From: a virus
Taxonomy: Duplodnaviria; Caudoviricetes
IMG/VR virus record: IMGVR_UViG_3300036859_000285
Location: 1-57,561 of that record
Length of the DNA stretch: 57,561 nucleotides
Reading direction: 5' to 3' (one strand)
The first letter of the stretch is position 1, and every line of letters starts with the position of its first letter. The translations under genes and the position numbers were made by a program. The notes beneath the pieces are model-generated. The model ran no database searches. It saw only the letters and a list, made by a program, of their open reading frames with translations, and was not told where the DNA came from. Positions 6,811-56,315 of the stretch are shown here, piece by piece.

Positions 6811-6822
6811 GGGAGAGCGATC

Positions 6823-7035
6823 GTGAACTACCTCAACCCAGCGGCAGGAAAAGCACGGGAGGCCAGACAGGGCGCTGCCGTGGCCGCGGTCGGCGCCCTC
6901 ACGGGTGCCGCCGCGGCCGGTTCAACCCCGACCAAGGCCGAGTTCGACGCCGTCGTCGCAGATCTTGCGACGCTGCGGACCAAGCTCAACGCTGCGCTTA
7001 CCGCGCTGCGCGACGCCGGCGTCATCGCGACCTGA
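6823..7035 (+). CDS. Head fibre/decoration-like small protein
   Basis: PTKAEFDAVVADL...KLNAALTALRDAGVI, directly after the capsid gene. Confidence 0.7.
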   Translation: MNYLNPAAGKAREARQGAAVAAVGALTGAAAAGSTPTKAEFDAVVADLATLRTKLNAALTALRDAGVIAT

Positions 7036-7139
7036 CCATGTCGGGATCTGTGCGCTGCCCGCTGTGCGGCACCCCAGGTGCCGCCTGCGGGCAGCCCAGC
7101 ACCTCAACCCCGTTCGGCCTATCCATGGAGGACAAGCAG

Positions 7140-7415
7140 GTGAGCGGACCGCTCAAAAAGTATCGAGTGAACATGCACGGGCGGGAAACGGTCATGAAGC
7201 TGAACGAGGCCGACGCGCAGCGGTACGGCGGGATCGCCATCGATGGCGATGCCTGCCCGATCCCGCCTGAGGACCCCGCGGCCGGCGACGGCGAAGGCGG
7301 CGGGACCGAGCCGGCTGAGCCACCGGCGGAGGCGCCCAAGGCCGCGCCTAAGGCCAAGGCGAAGAAGCCGGCGAACAAGGCCCGCGGTGCGTCCTCGAAG
7401 GGCACAGGCGCCTGA
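7140..7415 (+). CDS. Hypothetical head-associated protein (K/P/A-rich tail); alternative start 7038
   Basis: GGAGG RBS before GTG; stop overlaps next start. Confidence 0.65.
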   Translation: MSGPLKKYRVNMHGRETVMKLNEADAQRYGGIAIDGDACPIPPEDPAAGDGEGGGTEPAEPPAEAPKAAPKAKAKKPANKARGASSKGTGA

Positions 7416-7924
7416 TGTTGGCGACCGGGGCGGACTGGCCGGACTACGTGGGGGTAGACCCGCCCGAGAACGCTGACGCGCTGCTGCAGGCCGCCTCGGG
7501 CCTGGTCCGCCTGTCGTGCGGCTGGAACATCAGTCGCGAGACGGTTACCGAGCAGCTGCTCGACGGCTCGGGCGCGACGATCCTGTTCCTGCCGACCCTG
7601 CACCTGGTCGACGTGACCGAGGTTCTGATCGACGGCACGGCGGTCACCGATTACCGCAAGTCCGCGATGGGCGCGCTGTACCGCGCGGCCGGATGGCCTT
7701 GGGGGTTCGAGAACATCTCGGCGAGCTACGTCGACGGCCTCGATCCGGTACCGGCCGAGGTCAAGGCGCTGGTGGTCAACATGGCGGCCCGTACGGTCGG
7801 CCCGACCCCGGGCCTGATACAGAAGACGGTCGGGCAGGTGTCCTACCGCTGGGGCGACGTGTCCGGGATCCGGCTGGACCTCGCCGACGAGCGGGTGCTC
7901 TCGCGGTACAGGATCGCCGCGTGA
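7415..7924 (+). CDS. Head-to-tail adaptor
   Basis: Position; LLQAASGLVRLSCGW, GLDPVPAEVK, VLSRYRI. Confidence 0.8.
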   Translation: MLATGADWPDYVGVDPPENADALLQAASGLVRLSCGWNISRETVTEQLLDGSGATILFLPTLHLVDVTEVLIDGTAVTDYRKSAMGALYRAAGWPWGFENISASYVDGLDPVPAEVKALVVNMAARTVGPTPGLIQKTVGQVSYRWGDVSGIRLDLADERVLSRYRIAA

Positions 7925-8244
7925 TCGACCTCGGCGCCGACCAGATCACCGTGCTGCGGTCCCCGCCAGGCGATGCGTTCGGCGACCCGACAGGGGCGGC
8001 CGCCGAGACGCTCATCACGGGCTGCAGCATCCAACCCGGCAGCAGCAGCGAGGACGTGAACGGCCGCGACCAGGTCATCACCGACCTGTCGGCGTTCCTG
8101 CCCGCCGGAACCGACATCACCTCAACCGACCGCGTCCGCTGGCAGGGCGTCGACTACGCCGTGCACGGCCAGCCGCAACGCTGGGCCGACCTGGAAGGCG
8201 TCGAATCCCACGTGCATGTGACCCTTCGCAGAGTCACCGGATAG
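7921..8244 (+). CDS. Head-to-tail stopper
   Basis: GTGA overlap; GCSIQPG, DITSTDRVRWQGVDYAVHGQP. Confidence 0.8.
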   Translation: MIDLGADQITVLRSPPGDAFGDPTGAAAETLITGCSIQPGSSSEDVNGRDQVITDLSAFLPAGTDITSTDRVRWQGVDYAVHGQPQRWADLEGVESHVHVTLRRVTG

Positions 8245-8258
8245 GAAGGCGCGCGCCA

Positions 8259-8558
8259 ATGGCCGACATGACGTATGTGGCGTTCCCGAGCGGGATCCGC
8301 GACCTGATGCGATCCGAGCCGATGCGCCGCGCCATGGAACAGGCCGCTCAGCGCGGCAAGGCCTACGCCGAGTCGATCGCGCCTCGCGACAGCGGCGAGT
8401 ACGCGACCTCGTTCGTCGTGACCTCGGGGATCGGCAAGAGCAGGGCGTTCGCCGTCCTGGCCAACACCGCGCCGCACGCCGTCGTCGTCGAGCTGGTCAA
8501 CGGCGGCGGGCAGCGTGTCCTCGGCCGGACCGTCGACGTGATCGAGAAGGGCGGATGA
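8259..8558 (+). CDS. HK97 gp10-like neck protein
   Basis: APRDSGEYATSF, NTAPHAVVVE. Confidence 0.7.
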   Translation: MADMTYVAFPSGIRDLMRSEPMRRAMEQAAQRGKAYAESIAPRDSGEYATSFVVTSGIGKSRAFAVLANTAPHAVVVELVNGGGQRVLGRTVDVIEKGG

Positions 8559-8559
8559 T

Positions 8560-8934
8560 GTGGCCGACCTCTCGGTTTTCCCCGACGTGGCCGCGGCGCT
8601 GGTTGTACGGCTCGGATCCTACGGCTCGACATGGGAGAAACTGCCGGCCGACCTGGGCGCGCACCTGCCGGCCGTACGGGTGCGCCGTACGGGGGGGTCA
8701 GGCGATCGGATTACCGACGTCCAGCGGATCGACGTCGAGGTGTACGCGACGACCTACGCAAGCGCGATGAGCATCGGCCGGCAGATCGAGCAGACGCTCA
8801 TCTCAGGGCCGATCCTGTCCGCCGGCGTGGTTCTGGACCGCGTCGAGACCGAGGTCGGCCCGCACGAGGCGCCGTACCCCGACGAGCGGATGCGGCTGGT
8901 CGCCGCCACCTACCGGGCATCTGTCCGCCGCTGA
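8560..8934 (+). CDS. Tail terminator protein
   Basis: LPAVRVRRTGG...RIDVEVYA; precedes major tail gene. Confidence 0.8.
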   Translation: MADLSVFPDVAAALVVRLGSYGSTWEKLPADLGAHLPAVRVRRTGGSGDRITDVQRIDVEVYATTYASAMSIGRQIEQTLISGPILSAGVVLDRVETEVGPHEAPYPDERMRLVAATYRASVRR

Positions 8935-8947
8935 ACCCCCTGTTTCA

Positions 8948-8969
8948 AGCCCCGTCCTGCGGGGCTCTT
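8948..8969 (+). terminator. Short stem-loop, possible attenuator or processing site before major tail gene
   Basis: AGCCCCG-tcctg-CGGGGCT followed by CTT. Confidence 0.4.
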
Positions 8970-9015
8970 CGTGTAGTCCGAAGCGTCCCAGAACACTGAA
9001 AGGGCGGGCCGTCCG

Positions 9016-9663
9016 ATGGCCTCTTGGGAAAGTCTGAAGAACAAGCAAAACGAGCTCATCCGCAAGGCCTTGGAAGGGTCCGTTTTCGTCGCCCCGTCGA
9101 CGTCGGCGGCGATCACCACACTCACCGGTTCGGACAGCTCGCTGACCGCGCTGCCGGCGGGTTATGAGGATGTGGGCTGGACCAGCGACGACGGCGCCTC
9201 GTTCGGCCGCAACGTCGACACCTCGGACGTCACCTCGTGGGGATCGGTTGAGCCGACCCGCACCGACATCGTCAAGGACACCACGACCCTCAAGTTCGGG
9301 TGCCAGGAAACCAAGCTGCTCACCATCGGCCTGTACACCGGCGCGGACATGTCCGCCGTCACCGCCGACCCGACGTCGGGCGAGGTCAGCATCGAGAAGC
9401 CCGACCGGCCGCGGCAGACCTTCTACCGCGCGTTCACGGTCGGCGTCGACCTGTCGGACGCCGGTGAGATCTACGTCGCCCGATTCCTGCCCAGGGCCTC
9501 GGTCACCGACTACGACGACCAGGCGTTCAAGAGCTCGGGCGACGACCCCACCATGTGGGCGGTCACCATGACCGGTCACATGGACTCGACGCTCGGCTAC
9601 TCCGAGCGGTACCTGTTCGGCGGCGCCGGCTGGAAAGCCCTGCTGACCGACATGGGGTTCTGA
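9016..9663 (+). CDS. Major tail (tube) protein
   Basis: GYEDVGWTSDDG, TSWGSVEPTRTDI, typical of actinophage tail tube proteins. Confidence 0.9.
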   Translation: MASWESLKNKQNELIRKALEGSVFVAPSTSAAITTLTGSDSSLTALPAGYEDVGWTSDDGASFGRNVDTSDVTSWGSVEPTRTDIVKDTTTLKFGCQETKLLTIGLYTGADMSAVTADPTSGEVSIEKPDRPRQTFYRAFTVGVDLSDAGEIYVARFLPRASVTDYDDQAFKSSGDDPTMWAVTMTGHMDSTLGYSERYLFGGAGWKALLTDMGF

Positions 9664-27658: not shown

Positions 27659-28213
27659 GTGAATTCACCCCCACACGCCCAACCCTGGGACGGCTCAGGA
27701 GAGGCCGCCAGTGGCCGCCAGGGCCACGACAAGCCCCTCTCTGGCATCCCAGGACCCGAAAACGACCCCCAGAGGCTCACGGAGCCGCACAGCGCCTCGC
27801 CGAAAGCCGGCGGATGCTGGGCCCTGTACTGCCGCTCCAACCGCGGCGGCGACGACGCGATGCAGACCCTCAACGCCCAAGAGGCCACGCTGCGCGCTCT
27901 CGCGGCCGCCCGCGGCGCCACCGTGTGCGGCGCCTGGCTCGAGATCGGCCCAGGCCCAGGCAGCGCCTATCACGCGATGATCCAGCACCTGCGCGGCAAC
28001 GGATGCGCACGCGTCGCCATCTACGACCTCGGCCGGCTCACCCGCGACCCCAACGAGTTTCAGCTCGTGATGGAGTTGCTCGCCGAGCTCGGCATCGGCC
28101 TGACCCTCGCGGACGGCACCGACCTGGATACCGCCGACGACCCCGTACTCAGGCTCAGGCTGTACGGCTTCGCACCGCGAAAGGCTCGCCTCGCCCCGGG
28201 ATCCAACTGGTGA
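27659..28213 (+). CDS. Stand-alone serine-recombinase catalytic domain, probably inactive; start uncertain
   Basis: WALYCRSN...Q...LR...VAIYDLGRLTRD; no DNA-binding domain. Confidence 0.7.
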   Translation: MNSPPHAQPWDGSGEAASGRQGHDKPLSGIPGPENDPQRLTEPHSASPKAGGCWALYCRSNRGGDDAMQTLNAQEATLRALAAARGATVCGAWLEIGPGPGSAYHAMIQHLRGNGCARVAIYDLGRLTRDPNEFQLVMELLAELGIGLTLADGTDLDTADDPVLRLRLYGFAPRKARLAPGSNW

Positions 28214-29646
28214 AACAAGGCATTCTCGCGGCCGCCGTGGCGCCCCTGCCATGCGGCATCTACGTCCGCATTTCCAAGGACAGGCTCATGGAAGGCCTCG
28301 GCGTCGCACGGCAGGAAGGCGACTGCCGAGCCCTGGCCGAGAAACGCGGATGGGCCGTCGTCGACGTCTACTGCGACAACGACGTTTCAGCGAGCGGCAA
28401 GAAAAAGCGAGAGCAGTGGGAACGTCTACTTGCCGACCTCCAGAGCGGCCGCATCCGCGCAATCGTCGCCTGGCATGTGGACCGGCTGACCCGCCGCCCT
28501 GTCGAGCTCGAGGGCGTTATCGATATGGCCGACCGGCTCGGCGTGCAGTTGGCGACCGTGAACGGCGAAATCGACCTCGGCACACCCACCGGGCGTGCAA
28601 TGGCCCGCATTCTCGGCGCCTGGGCTCGGCTCGAGGTTGAACAGAAATCGCTGCGGCAGCAAGCGGCGAATAAGCAACGTGCACATAGCGGAGAGGTGTG
28701 GTGTGGGGGCATGCGCTGCTACGGATATACAGAAGACGGCCACGGCATTATTGAGAAAGAGGCGGAGATAATCCGCGAGATGACTAAGCGAGTCATCAAT
28801 GGCGATTCCCTGAGAAGCCTTGTTCTCGAGCTGGTACAGCGCGGCATCACCACCACGACGGGCGGCCCGTGGCAGGCGTTGACGATCCGCCGGCTGCTGC
28901 AAAATCCCCGGCTGACAGGCAAGCGGGTCTACCGCGGCGAGGTCGTTGCTCAAGGCCAGTGGCCGGCCATCCTGGAGGAGGCGACCCAGCAACGCCTGAT
29001 CGCCGTCTTGGCCGATCCGGCTCGTCGCAAGGACCGCTCGCAGCCTGGCGAGGCCAAGGTCCGAAAGTACCTGCTGACAGGGATCCTGGTCTGCGGGATC
29101 TGTGGCAAGCCGCTGCAGGCGCAGCCGAGCAACGCCGGCCGGCGCGGGTACGTCTGCCGCAAGACGCCGCCGTACGGCGGGTGCGGCCGCATCCGCATTG
29201 CCGCCGAGCCCCTCGAGCTGGACGTCGCCGAGCGGGTCCTCGCCCGGTTCGCCTCGCCGTCCATCCGGCAAAAGCTGGCCGCGGCGAGCACGTTCGAGGA
29301 TGACGCCACGCTGACCGAGCAGATAGGCGAGCTCGAGCGCCGCCAGGTCGAAAACGCCGAGGACTACGCGAATGACTTGCTCGATCGCCGCGCTTACCGG
29401 CTCGCCCAGGAGAAGATCTCAACGCGGATCAAGGAGCTCCGCGGCCGGATCATGCACCTGACGAGGCTGGAGCATCTGCCGACTGAGGTCACACCGGTCA
29501 CGTTGGCGCAATGGTGGGCCGACGCGTCTTTGCAGCGTCGCCGCGATCTGATTCAAACGGTCTTCGAGCAGGTCGTGATCGGGCCGACGACGCGTCCTGG
29601 ATTTCAGGGACTCGACGAAGCGAGATTGACCTATATCGCCCGATAA
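28210..29646 (+). CDS. int: Large serine integrase
   Basis: IYVRIS catalytic Ser, DRLTR, recombinase domain (YGY...NPRLTG), Zn ribbon LTGILVCGICG...YVC...GC, coiled coil. Confidence 0.95.
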   Translation: MKQGILAAAVAPLPCGIYVRISKDRLMEGLGVARQEGDCRALAEKRGWAVVDVYCDNDVSASGKKKREQWERLLADLQSGRIRAIVAWHVDRLTRRPVELEGVIDMADRLGVQLATVNGEIDLGTPTGRAMARILGAWARLEVEQKSLRQQAANKQRAHSGEVWCGGMRCYGYTEDGHGIIEKEAEIIREMTKRVINGDSLRSLVLELVQRGITTTTGGPWQALTIRRLLQNPRLTGKRVYRGEVVAQGQWPAILEEATQQRLIAVLADPARRKDRSQPGEAKVRKYLLTGILVCGICGKPLQAQPSNAGRRGYVCRKTPPYGGCGRIRIAAEPLELDVAERVLARFASPSIRQKLAAASTFEDDATLTEQIGELERRQVENAEDYANDLLDRRAYRLAQEKISTRIKELRGRIMHLTRLEHLPTEVTPVTLAQWWADASLQRRRDLIQTVFEQVVIGPTTRPGFQGLDEARLTYIAR

Positions 29647-30142: not shown

Positions 30143-30334
30143 ATGGACAAGATCGATCAGACCCCGGCAGACCAATGGCTCGAGGAGTTCGCCAATCGGC
30201 TACTCGTCTCGATCGAGACGATGGACGGCGTCGCCAGCGCCTCGCACATCCAGCTCCCGAGCCTCGATCACCCCGTCATCGGCGTCGAGCTCGATGGGGG
30301 CCACGAACTGTTCATCGACCTGATCGCTTCGTAG
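30143..30334 (+). CDS. Small hypothetical protein
   Basis: AGGAGG RBS. Confidence 0.7.
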   Translation: MDKIDQTPADQWLEEFANRLLVSIETMDGVASASHIQLPSLDHPVIGVELDGGHELFIDLIAS

Positions 30335-31146
30335 TGGAACTCACCTACTACGTCGCCCCCTGGGATCGCGACGTCGAACCCGACGAGATCGCCGAACCGG
30401 CGGCCGCGGACGTCCACGAAATCCGCCACGGCTACAACCTCGCCGGCCTAGAGCGGCTCACCCGCATCGCAGTCAGCCGCGCCATCACCCGAGGAGGCGA
30501 CTACCAGGGCCGCTACGAAGCAGCCTGGTCGGGCATCGCCGAGGCACTCTGCACGGCCAAACACGCACCGGACCGGGCTGACCTGATCGCCGCCGGATGG
30601 CGTGCGGTCGCAGACTACGCACGCGCCGAAGCCCACCACCACGGCATCGACCCGGAGACATGGGGACCGCTGCGCGGATTCGACCGCTACTGGCATGCCC
30701 GCAACTCTCCGAGCCCCGAGCGGCGGACCGTCGAGACCACGGCACTATGGCAGATCTGGCCCGAACTCTCCGACCGTCAGCGCGAGGCGCTCGCCACGTT
30801 GGCCGCAGTCGACGACTACGAGCAGGCCACCGACTCGTTGGGTATCGCCGCAGGCACGTTCAGGGCCTTGGTATCGCAGGGGCGGCGCCGATTCCTGGGA
30901 CTGTGGCATGAAGGTGAGGAACCTTCCCAGCCTTGGCATGTGGGCCGCCGTATCGGACATCGCCATGACCGCGACCGATTCGGCAAACCGCGGATCACTA
31001 TCGCCCAGCTGGACGACATCCGTGCCCGGTACCACGCGGGCGAGACGCTATCCGCTATCGGTGCCGACTACGGAGTGAAGAAGGCGTGCCTGTCGTCGCT
31101 GCTTAGCGGACGGACCAAACCTGCTCAAGATCGGCAGGCATCATGA
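30334..31146 (+). CDS. Sigma-factor-like protein (region-4 HTH) with an extra C-terminal HTH
   Basis: LSDRQREAL...YEQATDSLGIAAGTFRALVSQGRRRF; ETLSAIGADYGVKKACLSSLL. Confidence 0.65.
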   Translation: MELTYYVAPWDRDVEPDEIAEPAAADVHEIRHGYNLAGLERLTRIAVSRAITRGGDYQGRYEAAWSGIAEALCTAKHAPDRADLIAAGWRAVADYARAEAHHHGIDPETWGPLRGFDRYWHARNSPSPERRTVETTALWQIWPELSDRQREALATLAAVDDYEQATDSLGIAAGTFRALVSQGRRRFLGLWHEGEEPSQPWHVGRRIGHRHDRDRFGKPRITIAQLDDIRARYHAGETLSAIGADYGVKKACLSSLLSGRTKPAQDRQAS

Positions 31147-32219
31147 ACCTAGCCGACAGTTCAACGTTCACCCGTCCGATTATCAAGGCGCTTCGATCAC
31201 ATGCGAACGCGATCGCTCAGTCCATGGCCGGCCCTAAAGGATCACCTGCGGCCATTGAGCGGGCGCTGCCCGCGGCCGGCTGCTGGGTATACCTGTCGGC
31301 CGTCGTCGCCTGGGCCGAGGACCACGGCCTGATTGATCCCTGGCTACGGCCCGGGGCCACCGAGCTGCGCGAGACATGGCTGACCGCCGGCGGCGACATG
31401 CGGTCCTGGCTAGGCGTCGCGTTCACCTCGCTCGCCGTCCATCCGGCAACCCGCTGCCTGGTCGATCCACGCTATGCCCCCTTGCAAGACCGCGACCCTG
31501 GCGAGCCAGAACTACAGGCGCTGGTGGACTGGTGGGGTAAGGCGCCCTCCCTCGCCTACGAGACGGACAGCGGTCCGGCCTCGGTGTCAGGGTGGATTAT
31601 CGGCGACCTGCTGCAATACCTTCGCGATCCACGCCCCGACGGCGGAGGGGGCGGAAACGCTCAAACTCCCTGGTGGGTCGCCGATTTCATCCTCGACCGC
31701 ACCCTCGTCCCCGCTGTCGAAACGTTCCCGCTCGAGACGCTTCGCACCATCGATCCTGCATGCGGAACTGGCCACTTCCTCATCCGCAAGATCGACTATT
31801 TATGGCAGTGGTACACCACGGGGACACTCGCATCCAGGCAGGTCAAGCGTCCGCCGCTTACCGGAGGAAAGGTCCGGGCACCCATGGACGCGATCAAAAT
31901 GATCCTCGCTGGTGTCGATGGCTGCGAGATCGACCCGCTCACAGCGGCCGTTGCTCGACTGCGCATGGTGGTAGCGATAGGTCAGCTACTCCATCGGTCT
32001 GGGCTGATTTCGAGCCCTCGGCTCGATGCCATTCCAGCGTGGGTAACGCCGCGGGTCGCGGTCGGAGACTCCCTACTCGCGGGAAAGGTCAGCCAAACCG
32101 AGTACGAGGCGCTGCATCCTGAACTCGCAGCCATCGAGAACCTCGGGGTTCCCGAGCAGGTCCATCCTCCCGCGCCGACCTTTCAGCAAGATTCTCTGTT
32201 TGACGAGGCCAACGCATGA
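31143..32219 (+). CDS. Truncated BREX-2/Pgl PglX-like N6-adenine methyltransferase homolog (no catalytic NPPY)
   Basis: WV....V.WAEDHGL, GDLLQYL, QTPWWVADFILDRTL.PAV, IDPACGTGHFL, GCEIDP, GDSLL; ORF ends about 45 aa later. Confidence 0.8.
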   Translation: MNLADSSTFTRPIIKALRSHANAIAQSMAGPKGSPAAIERALPAAGCWVYLSAVVAWAEDHGLIDPWLRPGATELRETWLTAGGDMRSWLGVAFTSLAVHPATRCLVDPRYAPLQDRDPGEPELQALVDWWGKAPSLAYETDSGPASVSGWIIGDLLQYLRDPRPDGGGGGNAQTPWWVADFILDRTLVPAVETFPLETLRTIDPACGTGHFLIRKIDYLWQWYTTGTLASRQVKRPPLTGGKVRAPMDAIKMILAGVDGCEIDPLTAAVARLRMVVAIGQLLHRSGLISSPRLDAIPAWVTPRVAVGDSLLAGKVSQTEYEALHPELAAIENLGVPEQVHPPAPTFQQDSLFDEANA

Positions 32220-32473
32220 CCAGGCCCGATCGCCGCACGCGGTCCGCCTATGAGCTGCAGCGCGACGACTACGTGCACGACACCGCTACCCCGATGCGAG
32301 TCGAGAGCGTCACGCCCGACCAGTTCGGTTCGATCACGGTTGTCGGCATCTGGGCCGCGGGAACAGAAATGACCATCCATCACCCGCGCGACCTGCAGCT
32401 CGACGTGACCCGCCTCGTCGACGCCGACGACCCCATCGCGCGGCAACTCTCCCTGACAGGAGTCACCCCATGA
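32216..32473 (+). CDS. Small hypothetical protein (SH3-like pattern)
   Basis: ATGA coupling; AYELQRDDYV. Confidence 0.65.
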   Translation: MTRPDRRTRSAYELQRDDYVHDTATPMRVESVTPDQFGSITVVGIWAAGTEMTIHHPRDLQLDVTRLVDADDPIARQLSLTGVTP

Positions 32474-34193: not shown

Positions 34194-34545
34194 GATCGAC
34201 AAGTACGGGCTCGGCCAGGACATCCTGAGGGTGCGAGGCGTGACGCGGGTGATCGAGGTCAGCCTCAATCAGGTCCTGGCCCACGTGTTCACGTTCACCG
34301 TCGACGGCGCCGACTACGCGGTTTCGATTGACGCCGGTGAGCCGTGGAGTTCCATGATGAGCCCGCCTCCCATCTCGCGTGAGGGCACGAGTTCGCCTGA
34401 CGCGCCCTGGGTCCGAGAGCCGGTGTTCGCCGAGCTGTGGCGCCTCCTGCGGACCAACGGCAGCACATTCAAGGGCGGCGCGTCGTTCATCCGCGCCAGC
34501 GCGCCCGGCGGGTCGGCCGAAAGGTCAGGGCTGGGGCCCGCGTAG
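34186..34545 (+). CDS. Hypothetical protein
   Basis: GGAGGAG RBS. Confidence 0.55.
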   Translation: MNEIDKYGLGQDILRVRGVTRVIEVSLNQVLAHVFTFTVDGADYAVSIDAGEPWSSMMSPPPISREGTSSPDAPWVREPVFAELWRLLRTNGSTFKGGASFIRASAPGGSAERSGLGPA

Positions 34546-35025
34546 CGGGAGATCGTCGTACACGAAGCGGGTGCGCGCGGGGTCGGCGACGATCGTCGTG
34601 TATTCGATGGGTCGGCCGTGCTGGTCGCGGGTGAGCCGGGCGACGGTGAGGACGTCGCGGCCGGGCAGGCGGAGCTCGGCGGCTTCGGCGCGGGTGGCTG
34701 GCCGTACGGCGAGTTCTTCGGTGGCGGTGGCGGGTTGGATGCCGATGCTGTTGAGTACGCCATACTGGTCATGGTGGTTTCGGGTCGGCGGAACAATGTC
34801 GAGCTGACGCCGTGGAACTGCGCGTGTGTCTCGGAGAAGATGCGCTGCATTCGGGCGGACGTCAACGACCTGCCCTGGAACGCCTTCCAGCTCGCCCGCG
34901 TCGTCGAGCGAGACGAGATGGGCGTCCAGCAGGATCGGGGCGAGGTTGCGGGCGCCCCCGTTCGCCGGCCCTACGCCTGCGGTCATCCCCGAGGACGACG
35001 GGCCGCCGGTCATCGCGTCCCACAT
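34525..35025 (-). CDS. Stand-alone UTRA-domain protein (GntR/HutC effector domain without HTH)
   Basis: EELAVRPATRAEAAELRLP..VLTVARLTRDQHGRPIEYT..V....RFVY. Confidence 0.75.
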   Translation of the reverse strand: MWDAMTGGPSSSGMTAGVGPANGGARNLAPILLDAHLVSLDDAGELEGVPGQVVDVRPNAAHLLRDTRAVPRRQLDIVPPTRNHHDQYGVLNSIGIQPATATEELAVRPATRAEAAELRLPGRDVLTVARLTRDQHGRPIEYTTIVADPARTRFVYDDLPLRGPQP

Positions 35026-35101
35026 CGCTCTTGTTAGCCGCGCCCACGCCGAGGACCCTTCCAATATCGAGCTGAGAGCGTGAGGTTGTTCGGCCCCCGT
35101 C

Positions 35102-35584
35102 ATGACTGACTACCAAGCTCCCTCGCCACTGGCGGCTGACCGGCCTGGATTTCTCGACGCCATCGGTCGCCTGGTAGCCGCCGGGATCATCCCGCTTAGG
35201 AAGCCCTGCGGCGTCTGCATGGTCTGCGCGGGCCGCGTTCAGGGGAATGTCGAGTGCGACGGGGCCGCCGTGCTTGACGCCGTCGACTGGCCGGTAGAGC
35301 TGGCCACAGCCATCGGCCGCGCCGAACGGGCTGAGGCTGCGATCGCCCGCGCAGACGAGGCCGCCATCCGGGCCGACGAGCGCGACCGAGTCATCGGAGA
35401 GATCAACGAGTGCTTGCACCTGAGTGAGGGCGAGTCCGCTGCCATTGGTCTGCTCAGGTGGATCTTGACCCAGAACCAACGGGAACAGGCCCGCCCCAGA
35501 CGCGCAAAGGCGCCCGAGGCGCCTGGGGCGTTCGCGAGCGCCTTCCGTACAGTCTCGCCCGCCCTCGAGGACGACGGCGAATGA
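35102..35584 (+). CDS. Hypothetical protein (CxxC plus coiled coil)
   Basis: PCGVCMVC; coupled to next ORF. Confidence 0.6.
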   Translation: MTDYQAPSPLAADRPGFLDAIGRLVAAGIIPLRKPCGVCMVCAGRVQGNVECDGAAVLDAVDWPVELATAIGRAERAEAAIARADEAAIRADERDRVIGEINECLHLSEGESAAIGLLRWILTQNQREQARPRRAKAPEAPGAFASAFRTVSPALEDDGE

Positions 35585-38763: not shown

Positions 38764-40788
38764 GTGCCACCGAGGGCCCCGAAGCCGCCGTTGCGGGTTG
38801 CTGTCGGCCAGCGTCTGGCCGGCCGCCCGCAAATCCATCTTGGCCAGCATGTCGGCCAGCATCAGAAGGCTCCTTCCCCTGGCCTTCTGTCGCGTGCCGC
38901 CGGCTGGATCCAGGCGGCACCGACCGAGCGCGCCCCGCTGCCTATTGGCGTGGGCGTGTTCGGCGTCGGCGAGATCCTCCACGTGACGCACACGCCCGCG
39001 TGGATGATCGGCATGGGCGTCCTCGGCGGCACCGTCGCAGCGTGGGGCGCGGTCCTCAACCGGACCAAGGACGGTCCGGCCGCGTTCAAGGCCGGCGCCG
39101 CGGTGATCGCCGCCGGCGCCTGGCTGTCCACTGCGGCGCTCGTCGGCGTCGACGCCTGGATGACCGCGGTCTACTGGGGCCTGTTCGGCGTTGCGTACGG
39201 CATCTATCGAGCCGACGACCTCACCCGCCAACAGGTGTACTGGCGCAAACAGAAAGCGTCCTGGCACCAGCTCGCCCGCCAGTTCGGAATCCCCGGATCA
39301 ACCCTGCTCAAGATCGAAGACACCCGCCTCGGGCAGAAACTCGTCATCGACGTCAAGGGCGCCGGCCGACGCGCCTCGCACATTGTCGCCTCGGACCTAG
39401 CCGAGCGGATCGCCGAACACCACATGATCCCCAAGGTGCGCGTGCAGGTGCGTGAGGCGAACATCGCCGGCCGCATCATCGTGTCGATCCGGATGAAAAG
39501 CCCGTGGGACGTGCCGATCAAGCACCCCACCCTTGACCCGACGTCCGAGATCGTGCTGCCCGAGATCGCCGACATCCGCGAGCCGCAGATCGTCGGCATC
39601 GACCCCGAGAACGGCCGGCCCCTCGAGATCACGTTCTGGGATGAGGACGGCGCCCGCAACATCCTGCTCGTCGCCGTCAAAGGCGGGGGCAAGTCGGTCC
39701 TGGTGTCCGACGTGCTCGAGCGGCTCACCGCGGCCGACAACGTGTGCATCTTCGGCATCGACCTGTCCAAGGCCAAAGAGATGCGGCGCTGGCGCAAGGC
39801 CCTCTACCTATCCGCCTGCGGCCCCGGGGAACGCGTCAAGGCGCTGCGCATGCTGGAGATCGCGCACGCAATCATCGACTGGCGGGCCGCACAGCCGACC
39901 GACGACGCCGTGCACGTGCCGACCAAACGCAAGCCGTACGTCGCCGTCATCGTCGACGAGATGTCCGCGGCGCTCGGCGTCAACGACCCGATCGGCCTGG
40001 CGATCCGCGAGCACATGGCCTACATCACGTCCAAGGGCCGAAGTGAAGCGGTCGGCGCGTTCCTCGTCGGGCAGCGTGGCACCGTCTCGCACCTGGGTAC
40101 GGCCGACATCCGCTCCATGGTCGACACGGTCATCCTGCAAAAGCTCAACCGCAAGGGCGAGGCCGCGCATGCCGCCGGCGAGCTCGGCCTCGAGCTTCCC
40201 GACATGTCGCGGTACGGCGAGGGCAAGCCTGGCGTCACCTGCATCGCGCAGATCGACGGCTCGTATGAGCTTGGGCGGACCTTCGCTCTGGTCGACCTGC
40301 GCGACATCGACCGGATCGCGGCCGAGCGCACCCCCTGCCCGCTCGAGCCCGAGCTTGTGGAGTTCCTCGGCCCGAAGCTCGCCAAACTGCACGACCCGAT
40401 CGAGCCCGGGCAGCTCGCCGAGACCGCACCCGAGGCGGCCGAGCAGGCGGCCCAGGGCGCGAGCATCCGCGAGAGCGTCCGCCGCTACCTGTTCGCCGTC
40501 CCCGACATGGCCAACCCGTCGCCTGAGATGGCCGCCAAGTTCGCCGAGGCCGCGGCGATCCGCCGAGCCCAAGCGGCCGAGCAGACCGTGCTGTCCGACG
40601 ACGTCCGCGCCCGCGTCATCGAACTGCTCAAGGAAGGGACCACGGTCCGCGCCGTGACCAAGCATCTGGACATCGGGCAGACGTCGACCTGGCGCGTCAT
40701 GGACCGGCTACGGCAGGAAGGTGTCGCGGTCTGCACGAGCCGCGGCCGTAACGCCCGCTGGCACCTCGCAGAGAGTGACTCAGCGTGA
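38764..40788 (+). CDS. traB: TraB-like FtsK/SpoIIIE dsDNA translocase
   Basis: N-terminal TMs; Walker A AVKGGGKS; Walker B VIVDE; KGRS and GQR motifs; C-terminal wHTH. Confidence 0.88.
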   Translation: MPPRAPKPPLRVAVGQRLAGRPQIHLGQHVGQHQKAPSPGLLSRAAGWIQAAPTERAPLPIGVGVFGVGEILHVTHTPAWMIGMGVLGGTVAAWGAVLNRTKDGPAAFKAGAAVIAAGAWLSTAALVGVDAWMTAVYWGLFGVAYGIYRADDLTRQQVYWRKQKASWHQLARQFGIPGSTLLKIEDTRLGQKLVIDVKGAGRRASHIVASDLAERIAEHHMIPKVRVQVREANIAGRIIVSIRMKSPWDVPIKHPTLDPTSEIVLPEIADIREPQIVGIDPENGRPLEITFWDEDGARNILLVAVKGGGKSVLVSDVLERLTAADNVCIFGIDLSKAKEMRRWRKALYLSACGPGERVKALRMLEIAHAIIDWRAAQPTDDAVHVPTKRKPYVAVIVDEMSAALGVNDPIGLAIREHMAYITSKGRSEAVGAFLVGQRGTVSHLGTADIRSMVDTVILQKLNRKGEAAHAAGELGLELPDMSRYGEGKPGVTCIAQIDGSYELGRTFALVDLRDIDRIAAERTPCPLEPELVEFLGPKLAKLHDPIEPGQLAETAPEAAEQAAQGASIRESVRRYLFAVPDMANPSPEMAAKFAEAAAIRRAQAAEQTVLSDDVRARVIELLKEGTTVRAVTKHLDIGQTSTWRVMDRLRQEGVAVCTSRGRNARWHLAESDSA

Positions 40789-51692: not shown

Positions 51693-52196
51693 ATGGGAAC
51701 CGTCCGGCAGCTGCTCGCCCCCGAGGAAGCTCGTTTCCTGTCCTCGTCGTTCCCGCAGATCGTCCAGAACAACGGCAGCAACTTCCCGGTCACGGGCCTA
51801 GCGTTCGACTCGGGCGCGACCGAGACCGCCTATTTCAAACGCAGGCTGGTCTCGTACGGCTCGGGCAACATCACGATCAACCTGACGTGGTACGCCGACA
51901 CTGCCTCCTCCGGGGTCGTCCGCTGGTCGGGGGCGATCGCCTGCATCACCCCCGACACCGACACCCAAGACGTCGAGACCAAGGCATTCGCGAGCAGCAC
52001 AGACACCGATGACACGCACCTCGGCACGACCGGCCAACGGCTGCATCAGATGAGCCTGGCCATCAACAACCTCGACTCGGCGGCCGCCGGCGACGTCGTC
52101 TGGATCAAAATCTCGCGGCTCGGCGCCCACGCCAACGACACCATGAGCGGCGACGCGATCCTTGTCGAGGCCGAGCTGAGCTACTCCGACACCTGA
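51693..52196 (+). CDS. Probable virion beta-sandwich protein
   Basis: Beta-rich; AAGD...ISR...NDT..GDA. Confidence 0.6.
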   Translation: MGTVRQLLAPEEARFLSSSFPQIVQNNGSNFPVTGLAFDSGATETAYFKRRLVSYGSGNITINLTWYADTASSGVVRWSGAIACITPDTDTQDVETKAFASSTDTDDTHLGTTGQRLHQMSLAINNLDSAAAGDVVWIKISRLGAHANDTMSGDAILVEAELSYSDT

Positions 52197-52209
52197 CCAG
52201 GGGGCGAAG

Positions 52210-54672
52210 GTGTCCGTACGGTTCAGCGCAGACGCCCAGGACTTCACTCGCAGTCTGTCCCTCGGCTCCCAAACCAAGATCACCGTCTGCTGTTGGGTCC
52301 GCCTGCAGGTCGACCGCAACACCACGCAATGCGCTTGGGACATCGACGCAGGCACCGGCGACTCCTACATCATGGAGACCGGCAGCGACGGCACCACGAT
52401 GGGCGTCTGGAACAAGCTGGGAACCCAGCTGTTCACGACCGCGATGACCGTGGGCGTCTGGTACTTCTTCGGATTCTCGTGCAACGGCATCAACTGGACG
52501 GCCACCCGCCGCGCCGCGACCGCCTCGAGCTTCACCGTCAGCACCGGCTCGAGCGCCAACACGTCGACGACCTGCACGAACCTGCAACTCGGCGAGTCCG
52601 CGTTCAACAACGAGTGGATGAACGGCAACCTCGCCGCGTTCAAGCTCTGGGTCGGCCAGACGTTGACGCAGGCCGAAATGGAGGCCGAGGCCTGGTCGTT
52701 CATGCCCGTCCGCGTCGCGAACCTGACCGCCTGGTACCCGTTCCTCAAATCCGAGACGGCCGACTACAGCGGCAACGGCCGCACCCTGTCAGGCGGATCC
52801 GGCACCTCGAGCGAAGACAACCCGCCGATCGCGTGGGGCCCCTACCCGGTACCGCTGTTCCTGCCACCGTCGATCCACATCACTGCAGTCGGCCAGGCCA
52901 CCGAGACCGACACCGCCCAAACGGTCACCAGGGTCAAGATCAGCACCCTGGGCCAAGCTGTCGAGACCGACACCGCGCAGGCGGCCGGCAGGGTCAAGAG
53001 CAAGGCAGTCGGCCAGGCCCTCGAGACCGATACCGCCACGGCCGCCGGCCGAACCAAGACCCGCGCGGTCGGCCAAGCGCTGGAGACCGACACCGCGACC
53101 GCCCTCGGCCGAACCAAGACCCGCGCCCTCGGCCAGGCCCTCGAGACCGACTCGGCCGGCGCTCTCACCCGCAGCAAGACCCGCACCCTCGGCCAGGCCC
53201 TCGAGACCGACACGGCGCAAGCCGTACAGGCCGCGAAAACCAGGGTGACTGGCCAAGCGATCGAGGTCGATTCGGCACATCCTCTCGCCGGCGCGAAAGT
53301 CAGCGTCCTCGGCGAGGCGTTTGAGGTCGACACCGCGCAGCCAGTCACCCGGGCAAAGCTCGCCACCCTCGGCCAAGCTGCCGAGCTCGACGTCGCCCAA
53401 CCGATCACCGGCACGAAGACGTCGACCATCGGCCAGGCCCTCGAGGTCGACTCGGCCGGATCCGTGGCCGGTAGCCACGTCCAGGCGATCGGCCAAGCGG
53501 TCGAGGTCGACACAGCGGCCGCAGTCGCCGGCTCAAAGACCGCGACGATCGGCCAGGCCCTCGAGGTCGACTCGGCCCAGGCCGTACACGGCGTCAAGAC
53601 CAGCGCGCTCGGCCAGGTCCTCGAGCAGGATACGGCGACCGCCGTACAAGCCGCCAAGAGCGCGACCATCGGCCAGGCCGTCGAGGTCGACATTGCCGCC
53701 CCGGTCACCGCGAGCCGCACAGCGACGATCGGCCAGGCCCTCGAGGTCGACAGCGCCCAGGCCGTACACGGCGTCAAGACGCAGCAGGTCGGCCAGGCCC
53801 TCGAGGTCGACTCGGCCCAGGCCTTACACGGCGTCAAGACCGCGACTATCGGCCAGGCCCTCGAGGCAGATCTCGCCCAGCCCATCACCGGCCACGTCAT
53901 CCAAGGCCTCGGCCAAACCGTCGAGGTCGACACCGCGCAGCCCGTCCAGGGCGCGAAAATCCGCGCGATCGGCCAGGCCCTCGAGCAGGACACCGCGGCC
54001 GCCGTACAAGCCGCCAAGAGCGCGACCATCGGCCAGGCCCTCGAGCAGGACGCCGCCAAGGCCGTACAGGGCGTCAAGACCTGGACGATCGGCCAAGCCG
54101 TCGAAGTCGACTCGGCCGGCTCGGTCGCGACGTTCACCTACTTCCAACTTGGCCAATCCGCCGAGCTCGACACCGCGCAGCCCATCACCGGCACGAAGAC
54201 ATCGACCATCGGCCAGGCACTCGAGGCCGACACCGCCGGCAGCACCAGCGCCGGCAAGAGCGCGACCATCGGCCAGGCCCTCGAGCAGGACGCGGCCCAG
54301 GCCGTACAGGGCGTCAAGACCTGGACGATCGGCCAAGCCGTCGAGGTCGACTCGGCCACGGCACTCAGCACCCGCCGGATCACCAGCATCGGCCAAGCCG
54401 CCGAGCAGGACCTCGCCCAGACGTTGACGCGGGTCAAGGTCCGCGCCATCGGCGAGGCTCTCGAGGTCGACACCGCCCAGCCGATTACCGGCCGGCAGAT
54501 CCACGGCGACATCACCGTCACCGCAACCGGCCTCACCCGCGACCGAACCGCCAGCGGGCCCACACAGGGCCGAGCAGGCGGCAACCTCGCCGATGCACGG
54601 TCAGGCCGTCCCGCTGAACGCGGCCGCGGCACCCAAGGCCCCGCCCGCGGCTGGTCCGCCGGCGCGACATAG
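52210..54672 (+). CDS. LamG/ConA-like domain protein with 27 x 20-aa repeats (fibre shaft)
   Basis: VGVWYF, WMNGNLA, DYSGNGR; repeats of type IGQALEVDSAQAV.GVKT. Confidence 0.8.
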   Translation: MSVRFSADAQDFTRSLSLGSQTKITVCCWVRLQVDRNTTQCAWDIDAGTGDSYIMETGSDGTTMGVWNKLGTQLFTTAMTVGVWYFFGFSCNGINWTATRRAATASSFTVSTGSSANTSTTCTNLQLGESAFNNEWMNGNLAAFKLWVGQTLTQAEMEAEAWSFMPVRVANLTAWYPFLKSETADYSGNGRTLSGGSGTSSEDNPPIAWGPYPVPLFLPPSIHITAVGQATETDTAQTVTRVKISTLGQAVETDTAQAAGRVKSKAVGQALETDTATAAGRTKTRAVGQALETDTATALGRTKTRALGQALETDSAGALTRSKTRTLGQALETDTAQAVQAAKTRVTGQAIEVDSAHPLAGAKVSVLGEAFEVDTAQPVTRAKLATLGQAAELDVAQPITGTKTSTIGQALEVDSAGSVAGSHVQAIGQAVEVDTAAAVAGSKTATIGQALEVDSAQAVHGVKTSALGQVLEQDTATAVQAAKSATIGQAVEVDIAAPVTASRTATIGQALEVDSAQAVHGVKTQQVGQALEVDSAQALHGVKTATIGQALEADLAQPITGHVIQGLGQTVEVDTAQPVQGAKIRAIGQALEQDTAAAVQAAKSATIGQALEQDAAKAVQGVKTWTIGQAVEVDSAGSVATFTYFQLGQSAELDTAQPITGTKTSTIGQALEADTAGSTSAGKSATIGQALEQDAAQAVQGVKTWTIGQAVEVDSATALSTRRITSIGQAAEQDLAQTLTRVKVRAIGEALEVDTAQPITGRQIHGDITVTATGLTRDRTASGPTQGRAGGNLADARSGRPAERGRGTQGPARGWSAGAT
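52888..54500 (+). repeat. 60-bp tandem coding repeat, 27 copies
   Basis: GGCCAGGCCCTCGAG-type unit recurs every 60 bp from 52891 to 54451. Confidence 0.95.
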
Positions 54673-54863
54673 GAACTCCCATTTAGGGGGCGACGCACAG
54701 AGATGGATGTCCGACCTCGGCCCGTGGCCGCAAGGGGTCTGCGAGCGCCCGCAGCTCAGAGAGCAGGTCTCTGTCACCCCCGCACCGCCAGGTAACACAG
54801 TTCGGCGCCGTACCACGGTTGGGCGCCGAACCCCCACAACGGCCCCGTAGGGAGGTGACGACA

Positions 54864-56315
54864 ATGCTGCGCATCGACAGCGGATCGAGCGAATGGATAC
54901 GGCTCCCGCTCGCCGGCGAGACCAACCTCACCGACTGGGACGTCGAGATGGCCGTCACCCCCTACGGAACCAAACCCACCGAGGACGACTGGAAAACGGC
55001 CACCTGGGACACCGCCACAACCCCCAAAATCAAGATCGGCCCCGGCACAGACCTCGAGCTCGAAGACGGCACTTACCAGGTACGAGCCCGAATCCACACG
55101 CCCGAGGAAACCCCCATCATCCGCGGGCCGATCCTCCTGCGCTACGGCACGACGACCTACGTGCCAGGCGGCAGCTCAGGCGGCAGCAGCGACGGCGCCG
55201 TCGACAGCGTCAACGGCCACACAGGCGCCGTCGTGCTCACCGCGACAGACGTCGGAGCAGACGTCGCCGGCGCGGCCGCCACGGCACAGACCGCCGCCCA
55301 GGCCTACGCCGACACCGCCGCCAACACTGCCGCCGGCGCACGCCTCGCCAAGAGCGCCAACCTGTCCGACCTGGCCAGCGCGAGCACCGCCCGCGGCAAC
55401 CTCGGCCTCGGCGACTCGGCAACCCGCAACATCGGCACCAGCTCAGGCACCGCCGCGGCCGGCGACGACTCACGCATCACCGGCGCCGCCCAGAAGACGG
55501 CCAACCTCTCAGACCTGCCGAGCCCGAACACGGCGCGGACCAACCTCGGGCTCGGCGGGGCCGCCCTGCTCAACATCGGCACCAGCGCGGGCACCGCGGC
55601 CGCCGGCGACGACACCAGGATCACGGGGGCCGCCCAAAAGACGGCCAACCTGTCCGACCTCGCCAGCGCAAGCACCGCGCGGATCAACCTCGGACTCGGC
55701 GCGGCCGCCCTGCTCAACGTCGGCACCAGCGCGGGCACAGTCGCCGCCGGCGACGACTACCGCATCCTCGACGCAACCCAGAAGAGCACCGTCTACCCGC
55801 TCGCCGGATACGGCCTGCTCGCCGCAAGCGGCGTACCCGAGGCGTTCAACACCCCAAGCTCGTACGGCTCGGGCGTCTTCGCCTGCCGCGTCTGGATCCC
55901 CGCGGGCGCGGCGATCACCTCGCTCTGGACCGCCGTCCTGGCCGGCGGCACCTACAGCTCAGGCGGCCCTAACCAGCTCGGCCTCTACGACGACGACGCC
56001 CTGCAGGTCGCACTCACCGCCGACGACCCCACCCTGTGGAGCGCAGCAGGATGGCGAGGCGGCGCCCTGGCCGGCGGCCCCATCCCCGCTCAGACCGTGG
56101 GCAGGTTCGTCTACCTGCTGACCATCGCGAACGGCTACAGCGGTCTGCAACTCCCGTTCGGCCCTGCCGGATCACACGGCGCATGGTTCGCAACCGGACC
56201 AGGCACGACCAAACGCCGCGCGATCTACAACAACGTCGCGTCAATGCCCGCCTCGTTCGACCCGAGCAGCTACGGCAGCGCGACCTCGTACGAGCCCCTG
56301 GTCGGCGTCAGCTAG
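54864..56315 (+). CDS. Tail-fibre-like protein with 3 x 48-aa repeats
   Basis: VDSVNGHTGAVVL; KSANLSDL...ARxNLGLG...AGDDSRI repeats (144-bp period, 55350-55781). Confidence 0.8.
   Translation: MLRIDSGSSEWIRLPLAGETNLTDWDVEMAVTPYGTKPTEDDWKTATWDTATTPKIKIGPGTDLELEDGTYQVRARIHTPEETPIIRGPILLRYGTTTYVPGGSSGGSSDGAVDSVNGHTGAVVLTATDVGADVAGAAATAQTAAQAYADTAANTAAGARLAKSANLSDLASASTARGNLGLGDSATRNIGTSSGTAAAGDDSRITGAAQKTANLSDLPSPNTARTNLGLGGAALLNIGTSAGTAAAGDDTRITGAAQKTANLSDLASASTARINLGLGAAALLNVGTSAGTVAAGDDYRILDATQKSTVYPLAGYGLLAASGVPEAFNTPSSYGSGVFACRVWIPAGAAITSLWTAVLAGGTYSSGGPNQLGLYDDDALQVALTADDPTLWSAAGWRGGALAGGPIPAQTVGRFVYLLTIANGYSGLQLPFGPAGSHGAWFATGPGTTKRRAIYNNVASMPASFDPSSYGSATSYEPLVGVS

Follow-up and report, generated by a model that had tools for sequence, protein, structure and literature searches.

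BREX-2 (bacteriophage exclusion), also named Pgl (phage growth limitation), is a bacterial system directed against phages, and its methyltransferase is PglX. From its N-terminus, full-length PglX contains an N-domain, the methyltransferase motifs X (QTP), I (DPxCG[ST]GH), II and III (GDSLL), the catalytic NPPY motif, a target-recognition domain (TRD) and a C-terminal domain. The activity of PglX requires BrxB, BrxC and PglZ, according to PMC13326643, and PMC12839542 proposes the N-terminal bundle of BrxX as an interaction interface for other BREX components. The gene described here encodes a PglX-N-like protein of 358 aa and is placed at positions 31143..32219 (plus strand) of the IMG/VR virus record IMGVR_UViG_3300036859_000285, a linear sequence of 57,561 bp that was analyzed in its whole length and is termed the window. 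The record is that of a tailed temperate actinobacterial phage, with an estimated completeness of 88%. The protein is very probably a non-catalytic, clamp-tethered PglX-like module formed by an N-domain, the S-adenosylmethionine (SAM)-binding half of the methyltransferase and a C-terminal tail.

Other described proteins share parts of this design. HsdM and the Type IIG/IIL modules (PacII M 7vs4, MmeI 5hr4 and DrdV 7lo5) have the same helical bundle and gamma-class SAM fold, but are complete enzymes with motif IV and are paired with a TRD or an S subunit. The clients of the beta sliding clamp (DnaN), phage Mu C (PMC12867686) among them, likewise carry a terminal QLDLF-type peptide after a flexible linker. 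The known anti-BREX factors are Ocr, a DNA mimic that binds PglX, the T3 SAM lyase and OrbA (PMC11341690, PMC13326643 and 10.1101/2025.06.06.658234); the passages on BREX in the anti-defence compendium 10.1101/2025.06.06.658234 give Ocr and SAM lyase only.

Organization of the PglX-N-like protein

The gene and its parts are as follows.

31143..32219, plus strand: PglX-N-like pseudo-methyltransferase gene, 358 aa (open reading frame (ORF), NF033451 match, relatives and AlphaFold2 (AF2) model)
31143..31724, plus strand: N-terminal helical domain, residues 1-194, similar to HsdM_N and the BrxX N-terminal domain (helices at 7-194; BrxX/PglX structural matches)
31662..31676, plus strand: motif X, Q174-T-P-W-W178 (conservation)
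31752..31775, plus strand: motif I, SAM-binding loop DPACGTGH, residues 204-211 (follows strand beta1, 202-204)
31926..31934, plus strand: motif II, acidic E262-I-D264 (end of strand beta2, 258-262)
32064..32078, plus strand: motif III, GDSLL, residues 308-312 (after strand beta3, 304-307)
32079..32141, plus strand: remodelled segment, residues 313-333, which replaces the NPPY strand (helices 318-324 and 326-331)
32142..32186, plus strand: variable linker, residues 334-348 (block predicted local distance difference test (pLDDT) 61-69; length and sequence vary in the family)
32187..32201, plus strand: clamp-binding-like pentapeptide Q349-D-S-L-F353 (sequence, family motif and predicted clamp contacts)

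On the profile scores, the homology is specific to BREX-2 PglX, since the NCBIfam model NF033451 (BREX-2 PglX) matches the protein with an E-value of 6.1e-37 and the BREX-1 PglX model is far weaker (1.5e-5). The NF033451 score of 126.9 bits is below the curated cutoff of 400 bits, and the alignment covers the N-terminal part of the profile only (protein residues 40-322 against positions 55-326 of 1185). The PADLOC PglX model PDLC02529 was matched with an E-value of 7.5e-34, and the only Pfam match was MmeI_Mtase, below threshold. Three longer relatives (1205-1243 aa) are approximately 30% identical to the protein; one of them, a Streptomyces nigra protein of 1243 aa aligned over 77% of the query, is named BREX-2 PglX in its source. 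These results agree with a sequence-only reading of the window, made earlier, which had recognized the motif series as the N-terminal part of actinobacterial PglX. The N-domain and the motifs X, I, II and III follow each other as in the BREX-2 enzyme and lie equally far from the N-terminus. The family differs from it by an added linker and QxxLF tail, by being phage-borne and by the lack of pglZ or brxC nearby.

A word-indexed protein search returned at least 216 relatives at E <= 0.001, 120 of which are used for the family counts given below. The 120 listed relatives have 248-422 aa and are 46-68% identical to the protein. Searched exhaustively by HMMER, the family profile matched 1491 proteins at E <= 0.001, including 58 at E <= 1e-30. 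Near-full-length representatives of the family score 300-520 bits; from 154 bits downwards, past the family and its short fragments, many proteins of ~1150-1300 aa appear, matched at their own residues ~57-322.

The AF2 model is confident (pLDDT 94; predicted template modelling score (pTM) 0.91). Its best structural match is E. coli BrxX (9ewz_C; Z 14.1, root-mean-square deviation (rmsd) 6.0 Å, 305 aligned residues), followed by Salmonella PglX (8c45_B; Z 13.7). The BrxX/PglX matches (Z 13.4-14.1) begin at their residues 1-3, and after them come Type I and Type IIG methyltransferases, with Z 11.8-13.7 for the HsdM and Type IIG/IIL modules named above. Three Rossmann strands only are present (202-204, 258-262 and 304-307), and not the complete seven-stranded sheet. 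After them the remodelled segment 313-333 aligns opposite 'GTYHAVIANPPY' of the intermediate forms described below, and a terminal helix spans residues 352-357.

The residues of the SAM pocket, invariant or nearly so, outlast the overall divergence of the family. D204, G208, G210 and H211 of motif I, L311 of motif III, and Q174 and P176 are invariant in the 120-sequence alignment. Q174-T-P, which corresponds to motif X of gamma-class methyltransferases, is moreover invariant at all three residues (Q174, T175 and P176) across short, mid-length and full-length proteins. D264, D309, S310 and L312 are at least 90% conserved in the 120 sequences, and both E262 and D264 are so in a 31-sequence alignment. 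The retained pocket may bind SAM. Directly before motif X, at residues 163-173 (31629-31661), the subgroup of the window protein has 'PRPDGGGGGNA' and most members 'ERRKxxALA'.

Motif III is the last motif in common with full-length PglX, and the alignment stops there. The NPPY motif, present in the aligned full-length relatives, is absent from the 358-aa protein and from all 120 listed relatives. Compared with full-length PglX, the family lacks NPPYIT, FMKREFG, IDTSGAYIPGHGTPT, the TRD and the C-terminal domain, and the protein ends 46 residues past motif III. The absence of NPPY and of a TRD, pointed out in the sequence-only reading, therefore stands, as does its statement that the window has no other pgl or brx genes: PglZ (PF08665) and BrxC/BrxD (PF10923) have no match in the 57.5-kb record, which is 88% complete. 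None of the open frames of the window with at least 80 codons (stop to stop) contains [ND]PP[YFW]. The missing half was also searched for in the window and in the 26 loci of close relatives (10 IMG/VR contigs and 16 genome loci), with two sets of queries: the C-terminal halves of five mid-length proteins and, from five full-length ones, the catalytic and TRD parts. No homolog was found in the window at E <= 1, except a 31-residue chance match (E 0.99). Catalytic-half matches occur in 3 of the 26 loci, in each case as an in-frame continuation of the same gene, and 23 are without one. A split enzyme or a downstream continuation is rejected for the window phage on the basis of this search.

The C-terminal tail and the reduction of the family

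Of the 120 family members, 67 carry the pattern Q-x-x-[LMF]-[FL] among their 25 C-terminal residues, with the consensus QLDLF and mostly 9-12 residues before the C-terminus. In 1000 trials with shuffled tails, 2.1 tails on average and 8 at most carried the motif, and in the bodies of the family proteins it occurs three times in total. The QxxLF tail is presumably the beta-clamp-binding consensus (QL[SD]LF). The ending QQDSLFD had already been described as clamp-like from the single sequence, and the family-wide motif, together with the predicted docking, bears this out. By eye, no conserved QxxLF is seen in eight aligned full-length PglX proteins. Among the members without the motif (for instance P0018, P0034, P0064, P0081 and P0094), some end with QLGFD, QLTFD or QLTFN, endings that may be variants of it, and others terminate shortly past a conserved 'NLG'.

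The docking prediction paired residues 296-358, together with the family alignment, with two Streptomyces coelicolor DnaN chains, which stand in for the clamp of the host. The model score was 0.66 in all three runs and at most 0.08 in three controls; among solved complexes 58 of 80 attain this mark, and among mismatched pairs 2 of 110. The contact agreement between runs was at least 33% and the pLDDT of the partner approximately 40. In the predicted interface, tail residues 346-353 face clamp residues 169-174, 245-250, 320-322, 346-348 and 368-375, a patch that is presumably the canonical peptide cleft between domains II and III. This result is a likeness and not a proof of binding, because clamp-peptide complexes have already been solved; it points to a tail that would bind the clamp. 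The record has no match to PF00712, and a phage-encoded clamp is rejected as the target of the tail in the window phage.

The listed relatives reside in actinomycete phages and prophages. Their sources are Sphaerisporangium, Streptosporangium, Spongiactinospora, Actinomadura, Micromonospora, Glycomyces, Streptomyces and metagenomes. The ESM Atlas cluster that includes this protein has 92 members, from Actinomycetota and labelled 'hypothetical protein'. In IMG/VR, a query with the single protein confirmed nothing, and the ten contigs were obtained with the family alignment. When 14 kb of surrounding sequence were compared by megablast with the records of 50,697 isolated phages, none matched.

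The ratio of non-synonymous to synonymous substitution rates (dN/dS) is 0.21-0.48 in 22 pairs with an amino-acid identity of 67-91%, a set in which some pairs have duplicate loci in common, so that on codon evidence the family is under purifying selection. The sequence-only reading had asked whether phage homologs share the truncation under such selection, and they do. A recent deletion from full-length homologs, which would have spoken against it, is contradicted by the alignments: the truncation is family-wide and confirmed to be no recent event. The gene is joined to both neighbours by 4-nt ATGA overlaps. The one at 31143-31146 holds the upstream stop and the start of the PglX-N gene, and the one at 32216-32219 holds its stop and the downstream start. 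These overlaps and the purifying selection uphold the earlier view of a coupled and not decayed 358-aa frame.

Longer phage-borne relatives place the family in a series of reduction. The loci with approximately 30% identity hold mid-length proteins of 430-480 aa and not full PglX. These TRD-less PglX-like methyltransferases, found in phages, prophages and Streptomyces islands (for instance L012, L016, L057 and L044), have the same core motifs as the short proteins, but retain NPPY and the whole catalytic core, have a shorter N-domain and form a separate clan; no characterization of them was found in the searches made. NPPY is present in 37 of their 38 open frames and a QxxLF end in three of the 38 (the viral contigs L012 and L016, and L057). 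Three intermediates (P0126, L032 and L011; ~390-400 aa, 45-47% identical to the window protein) share the N-domain and the tail of the short members and differ from them by 'ANPPY' plus ~45 residues, after which QL[DS]LF follows directly.

A quick maximum-likelihood tree of the common region, unrooted, included 38 of the 120 short members (every third one with at least 330 aa), the three intermediates, 11 mid-length and 10 full-length proteins. The short and intermediate forms constitute one clan (support by the approximate likelihood-ratio test SH-aLRT, 99), in which the intermediates (98) are sister to all sampled short members (89), and the mid-length and full-length proteins fall in separate clans (99). 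The topology is consistent with a single loss of NPPY in the short clan. On the same pattern, catalysis would have been given up, and selection would have preserved the N-domain, the SAM-binding half and the tail.

A side observation concerns the ~436-aa TRD-less, NPPY-bearing genes of Streptomyces (L038, L040-L045, L050, L054, L056 and L064; positions ~6500-9230), which occur as tandem paralog pairs. A copy of ~453 aa ends 26-36 nt upstream of the ~436-aa gene, and the pairs are part of a conserved island of several genes, in which neighbours of ~296, 201, 224, 177 and 100 aa recur. This island may be an undescribed two-methyltransferase system or a mobile element.

Possible functions of the module

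The protein probably has a non-enzymatic role at replicating DNA, perhaps against a host defence. The leading guess, put forward tentatively, is that of a decoy of BREX-2/Pgl at clamp-marked replicating DNA. A candidate anti-BREX decoy had also been suggested in the sequence-only reading, which is partly supported on the whole. The tail would occupy the peptide cleft on DnaN, the clamp of the host, and the protein would sit on the clamps loaded on replicating phage DNA. From there its PglX-like surface, possibly SAM-bound, would compete for or titrate the partners of the real PglX (a PglZ/BrxC-type core), and a functional BREX-2/Pgl-type complex would be kept from acting on the phage DNA. An effect on BREX-2/Pgl would follow from this sequence of steps. 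The decoy is ranked first because the fold is specifically PglX-like, because the N-terminal bundle of BrxX has been proposed as an interface and because PglX depends on partners. Ocr, the T3 SAM lyase and OrbA are likewise phage-encoded and would act in the same pathway if the decoy is true, although none of them is homologous to a BREX component.

Several points weigh against the decoy. The tail motif is absent from 53 of the 120 members, and QDSLF of the window differs from the consensus QLDLF at position 2. The docking was obtained with a stand-in clamp and may echo the memory that the model has of solved clamp-peptide complexes. A clamp tether is superfluous for a simple decoy, and we know of no link between BREX-2 and the clamp. 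A tblastn search with the protein found no relative in the 50,697 isolated-phage records. Full BREX-2 PglX is present in 1 of 10 genomes that carry the PglX-N gene, a count that speaks neither for nor against a phage weapon and gives no support from co-occurrence. The gene lies in phage early or replication modules, with no recognizable anti-defence island, and in 8 of 27 loci, the window included, it adjoins a sigma-like gene. Lastly, the ancestor of the family may have been a phage methyltransferase with another task, because the nearest kin of the family include TRD-less, catalytically complete phage proteins with the same tail; and, as far as the alignments tell, a direct capture of host pglX is not evident, because the gene belongs to a phage-borne reduction series of TRD-less PglX-like proteins. 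An accessory subunit of a resident BREX-2 locus was rejected, given the single carrier with full PglX and the lack of PglZ and BrxC/D in the window.

The sigma-like gene and the other close features of the window are given next.

30334..31146, plus strand: translationally coupled sigma-factor-like protein, 270 aa, with an extra C-terminal helix-turn-helix (HTH) (family and structural matches)
32216..32473, plus strand: downstream coupled small ORF, 85 aa (ATGA overlap; without assigned family)
27814..29646, plus strand: large serine integrase (Pfam Resolvase, Recombinase and Zn_ribbon_recom; phrog_95, E 2.4e-106)

The main rival of the decoy, considered unlikely in its own right, is a replication-coupled transcription factor that would bridge the beta-clamp and the sigma-like partner or RNA polymerase. 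As a co-activator, or as an anti-sigma released by the clamp, it would allow the partner-dependent (late) promoters to fire only on replicating DNA. The T4 proteins gp33 and gp55, with gp45, are a parallel for late transcription coupled to the clamp, as is Mu C with the E. coli clamp. A clamp-binding motif is needed for Mu late transcription (PMC12867686). The PglX-N gene is coupled through ATGA to an upstream gene whose family (34 members) includes several with precomputed Sigma70_r4_2 and one named sigma-24 family protein in its source. In the model of the partner (pLDDT 84), sigma factors make up nearly all of the top 50 Foldseek matches and all 50 VIA rows, and the sigma-4 part matches with Z 8.3-9.9 and rmsd 1.6-3.8 Å. 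The sigma assignment has moderate support: the pTM is 0.44, Z values of 8-10 are middling for helical folds, Sigma70_r4_2 reaches 25.5 bits in one homolog against a cutoff of 25.7, and the window copy is sub-threshold with E 0.015.

In addition to the window, the sigma-like gene adjoins the PglX-N gene in 7 of the 26 close loci; in five of these it lies upstream and in two downstream. It also adjoins a mid-length NPPY-bearing homolog in the viral contig L013 (L013:4577-5626), which would make the pairing old, and the intermediates L011 and L032 have a sigma-like neighbour as well. In L032 a sigma-like partner is seen on both sides of the PglX-N gene (L032:6481-7965 and L032:9150-10172). On the other hand, the partner is not nearby in 19 of the 27 loci. 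It is not obligatory for the PglX-N gene, because none of five whole viral records without an adjacent copy encodes a real homolog elsewhere, only HTH fragments of 14.7-16.1 bits being present. The transcriptional role also leaves unexplained the invariant residues of the SAM pocket. A clamp motif on the partner itself was rejected, with none at either terminus in the 34 members and two overlapping internal matches in one of them. The bridging role is in line with this result, as the partner would have no clamp motif of its own at its ends.

The neighbours, scanned as 150 of 165 candidate ORFs and in 20 of 23 loci, include WhiB (6), replication initiators (5 and 3), DnaB (2), DnaC-like loaders (2), RusA (2-3), DnaN (2), sigma domains (2-3), Mom-like proteins (2) and DpdA (1). 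The recurrence of WhiB and sigma genes suits a transcriptional role, as does the gene order in L010, where a phage DnaN (L010:3946-5082, with all three Pfam clamp domains) is followed by one gene, the PglX-N gene and the sigma-like gene.

A variant of the transcriptional role, quite unlikely as it stands, is that the pseudoenzyme licenses a phage sigma factor from the clamp, with the SAM pocket as a metabolic input. The protein would sit on beta-clamps left on replicated phage DNA and would recruit the co-encoded sigma, similar to the extracytoplasmic function (ECF) type, and RNA polymerase, or hold the sigma inactive until clamps appear. If true, a T4/Mu-style switch of 'replication first, late genes after' would exist in actinomycete phages, built from the fold of a defence enzyme.

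An improbable alternative is that of a clamp hijacker or inhibitor, with a tail that fills the cleft, displaces host clients and redirects or stops host replication, and a globular domain that serves as bulk or stabilizer. Phage proteins that target the clamp are known, and the conserved terminal motif, the predicted docking, the replication modules and the presence of a phage DnaN no more than 3.2 kb away in 2 of the 20 scanned loci would fit this role. Mu C is reported to be lethal through the clamp (PMC12867686). However, a peptide alone would suffice for such a role, yet ~330 residues that include the SAM pocket are under purifying selection, and 53 of the 120 members keep the domain without the motif.

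The chances of a non-catalytic regulatory or targeting subunit, comparable to DNMT3L, or of one half of a split enzyme, are slim. The protein would then recruit or activate a catalytic partner at the fork, where new phage DNA would be methylated. The intact SAM-binding half, the beta1 edge exposed in the model, the complete-core phage relatives with the same tail (L012 and L016) and the Mom-like and DpdA genes of some neighbourhoods are in favor of it. However, no catalytic-half homolog is found in the window or in 23 of the 26 loci at E <= 1, and no [ND]PP[YFW] in the window frames, a negative weakened by the 88% completeness of the record, which leaves room for a missing gene.

That the gene is a decaying, functionless remnant is hardly conceivable: the catalytic motifs are lost and the GC content at third codon positions (0.72) is below that of the structural genes (~0.9), but at least 216 relatives exist, the 120 listed ones all lack NPPY, dN/dS is 0.21-0.48, the motif residues are invariant, the terminal motif is conserved, the fold is confident and the frame is coupled on both sides.

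The phage context and the significance of the family

The window encodes the large terminase, portal, head protease, major head protein, tape measure, distal tail protein (Dit) and tail fibres of the phage. The PglX-N gene lies ~1.5 kb downstream of the serine integrase, whose start is uncertain, as the resolvase domain is found only from residue 149 of the ORF 27814-29646. The 85-aa downstream ORF has no Pfam or PHROG match, and it is beside the PglX-N family in none of the 26 loci. Amid a plus-strand block, an ORF on the minus strand (34528-35103) encodes a UTRA domain, the GntR-type effector-binding domain (E 2e-7), with no HTH seen in the frame examined. A 674-aa ORF on the plus strand (38764-40785) weakly matches phrog_1358 (E 4.9e-7), which is FtsK/SpoIIIE-like, as is more usual in conjugative elements of actinomycetes. 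The region 52000-56315 has a strong AT skew (0.26-0.35) and a negative GC skew; it holds an 820-aa ORF, with four stretches that match phrog_14065, and a tail-fibre-like ORF, and the proteins encoded there are probably repetitive. Loci of the Micromonosporaceae type (L024, L026 and L028-L031) repeatedly encode a DUF4192 protein (E 2.3e-72) and a DprA-like one in the vicinity of the PglX-N gene, which suggests that this subgroup is carried by a different kind of mobile element.

To our knowledge, no clamp client carries a domain derived from a methyltransferase, and a search of the literature on clamp motifs and methyltransferases found no bacterial or phage client of this kind. No PglX-derived phage protein was found in the literature either, although supplements, such as that of PMC12839542, might list short PglX-like proteins. 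Two analogies come from eukaryotes. DNMT1, a methyltransferase fold, is tethered to the clamp PCNA through a PIP (PCNA-interacting protein) box, and DNMT3L is a catalytically dead paralog that was retained in a non-catalytic role; the folds and classes are different and no homology is implied.

If the decoy is true, an anti-BREX factor that imitates the methyltransferase of the system itself would be described for the first time, and the action of BREX-2/Pgl would be tied to the replisome. A probe of 358 aa with a mutable five-residue tether would then offer a direct route, in Streptomyces, to the question of where and how BREX halts phage replication. If the transcriptional role is true, the clamp-coupled late transcription of T4 and Mu would extend to actinophages through a new kind of adaptor. 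The complete-core, TRD-less and clamp-tailed relatives suggest that replisome-tethered DNA methyltransferases exist in bacteria and phages, of which no report was found in the literature searched. Either way, the family is a clear natural case of an enzyme that was turned step by step into a module without catalysis and with a clamp tether, from the complete core to a truncated core with NPPY and, finally, to the loss of NPPY.

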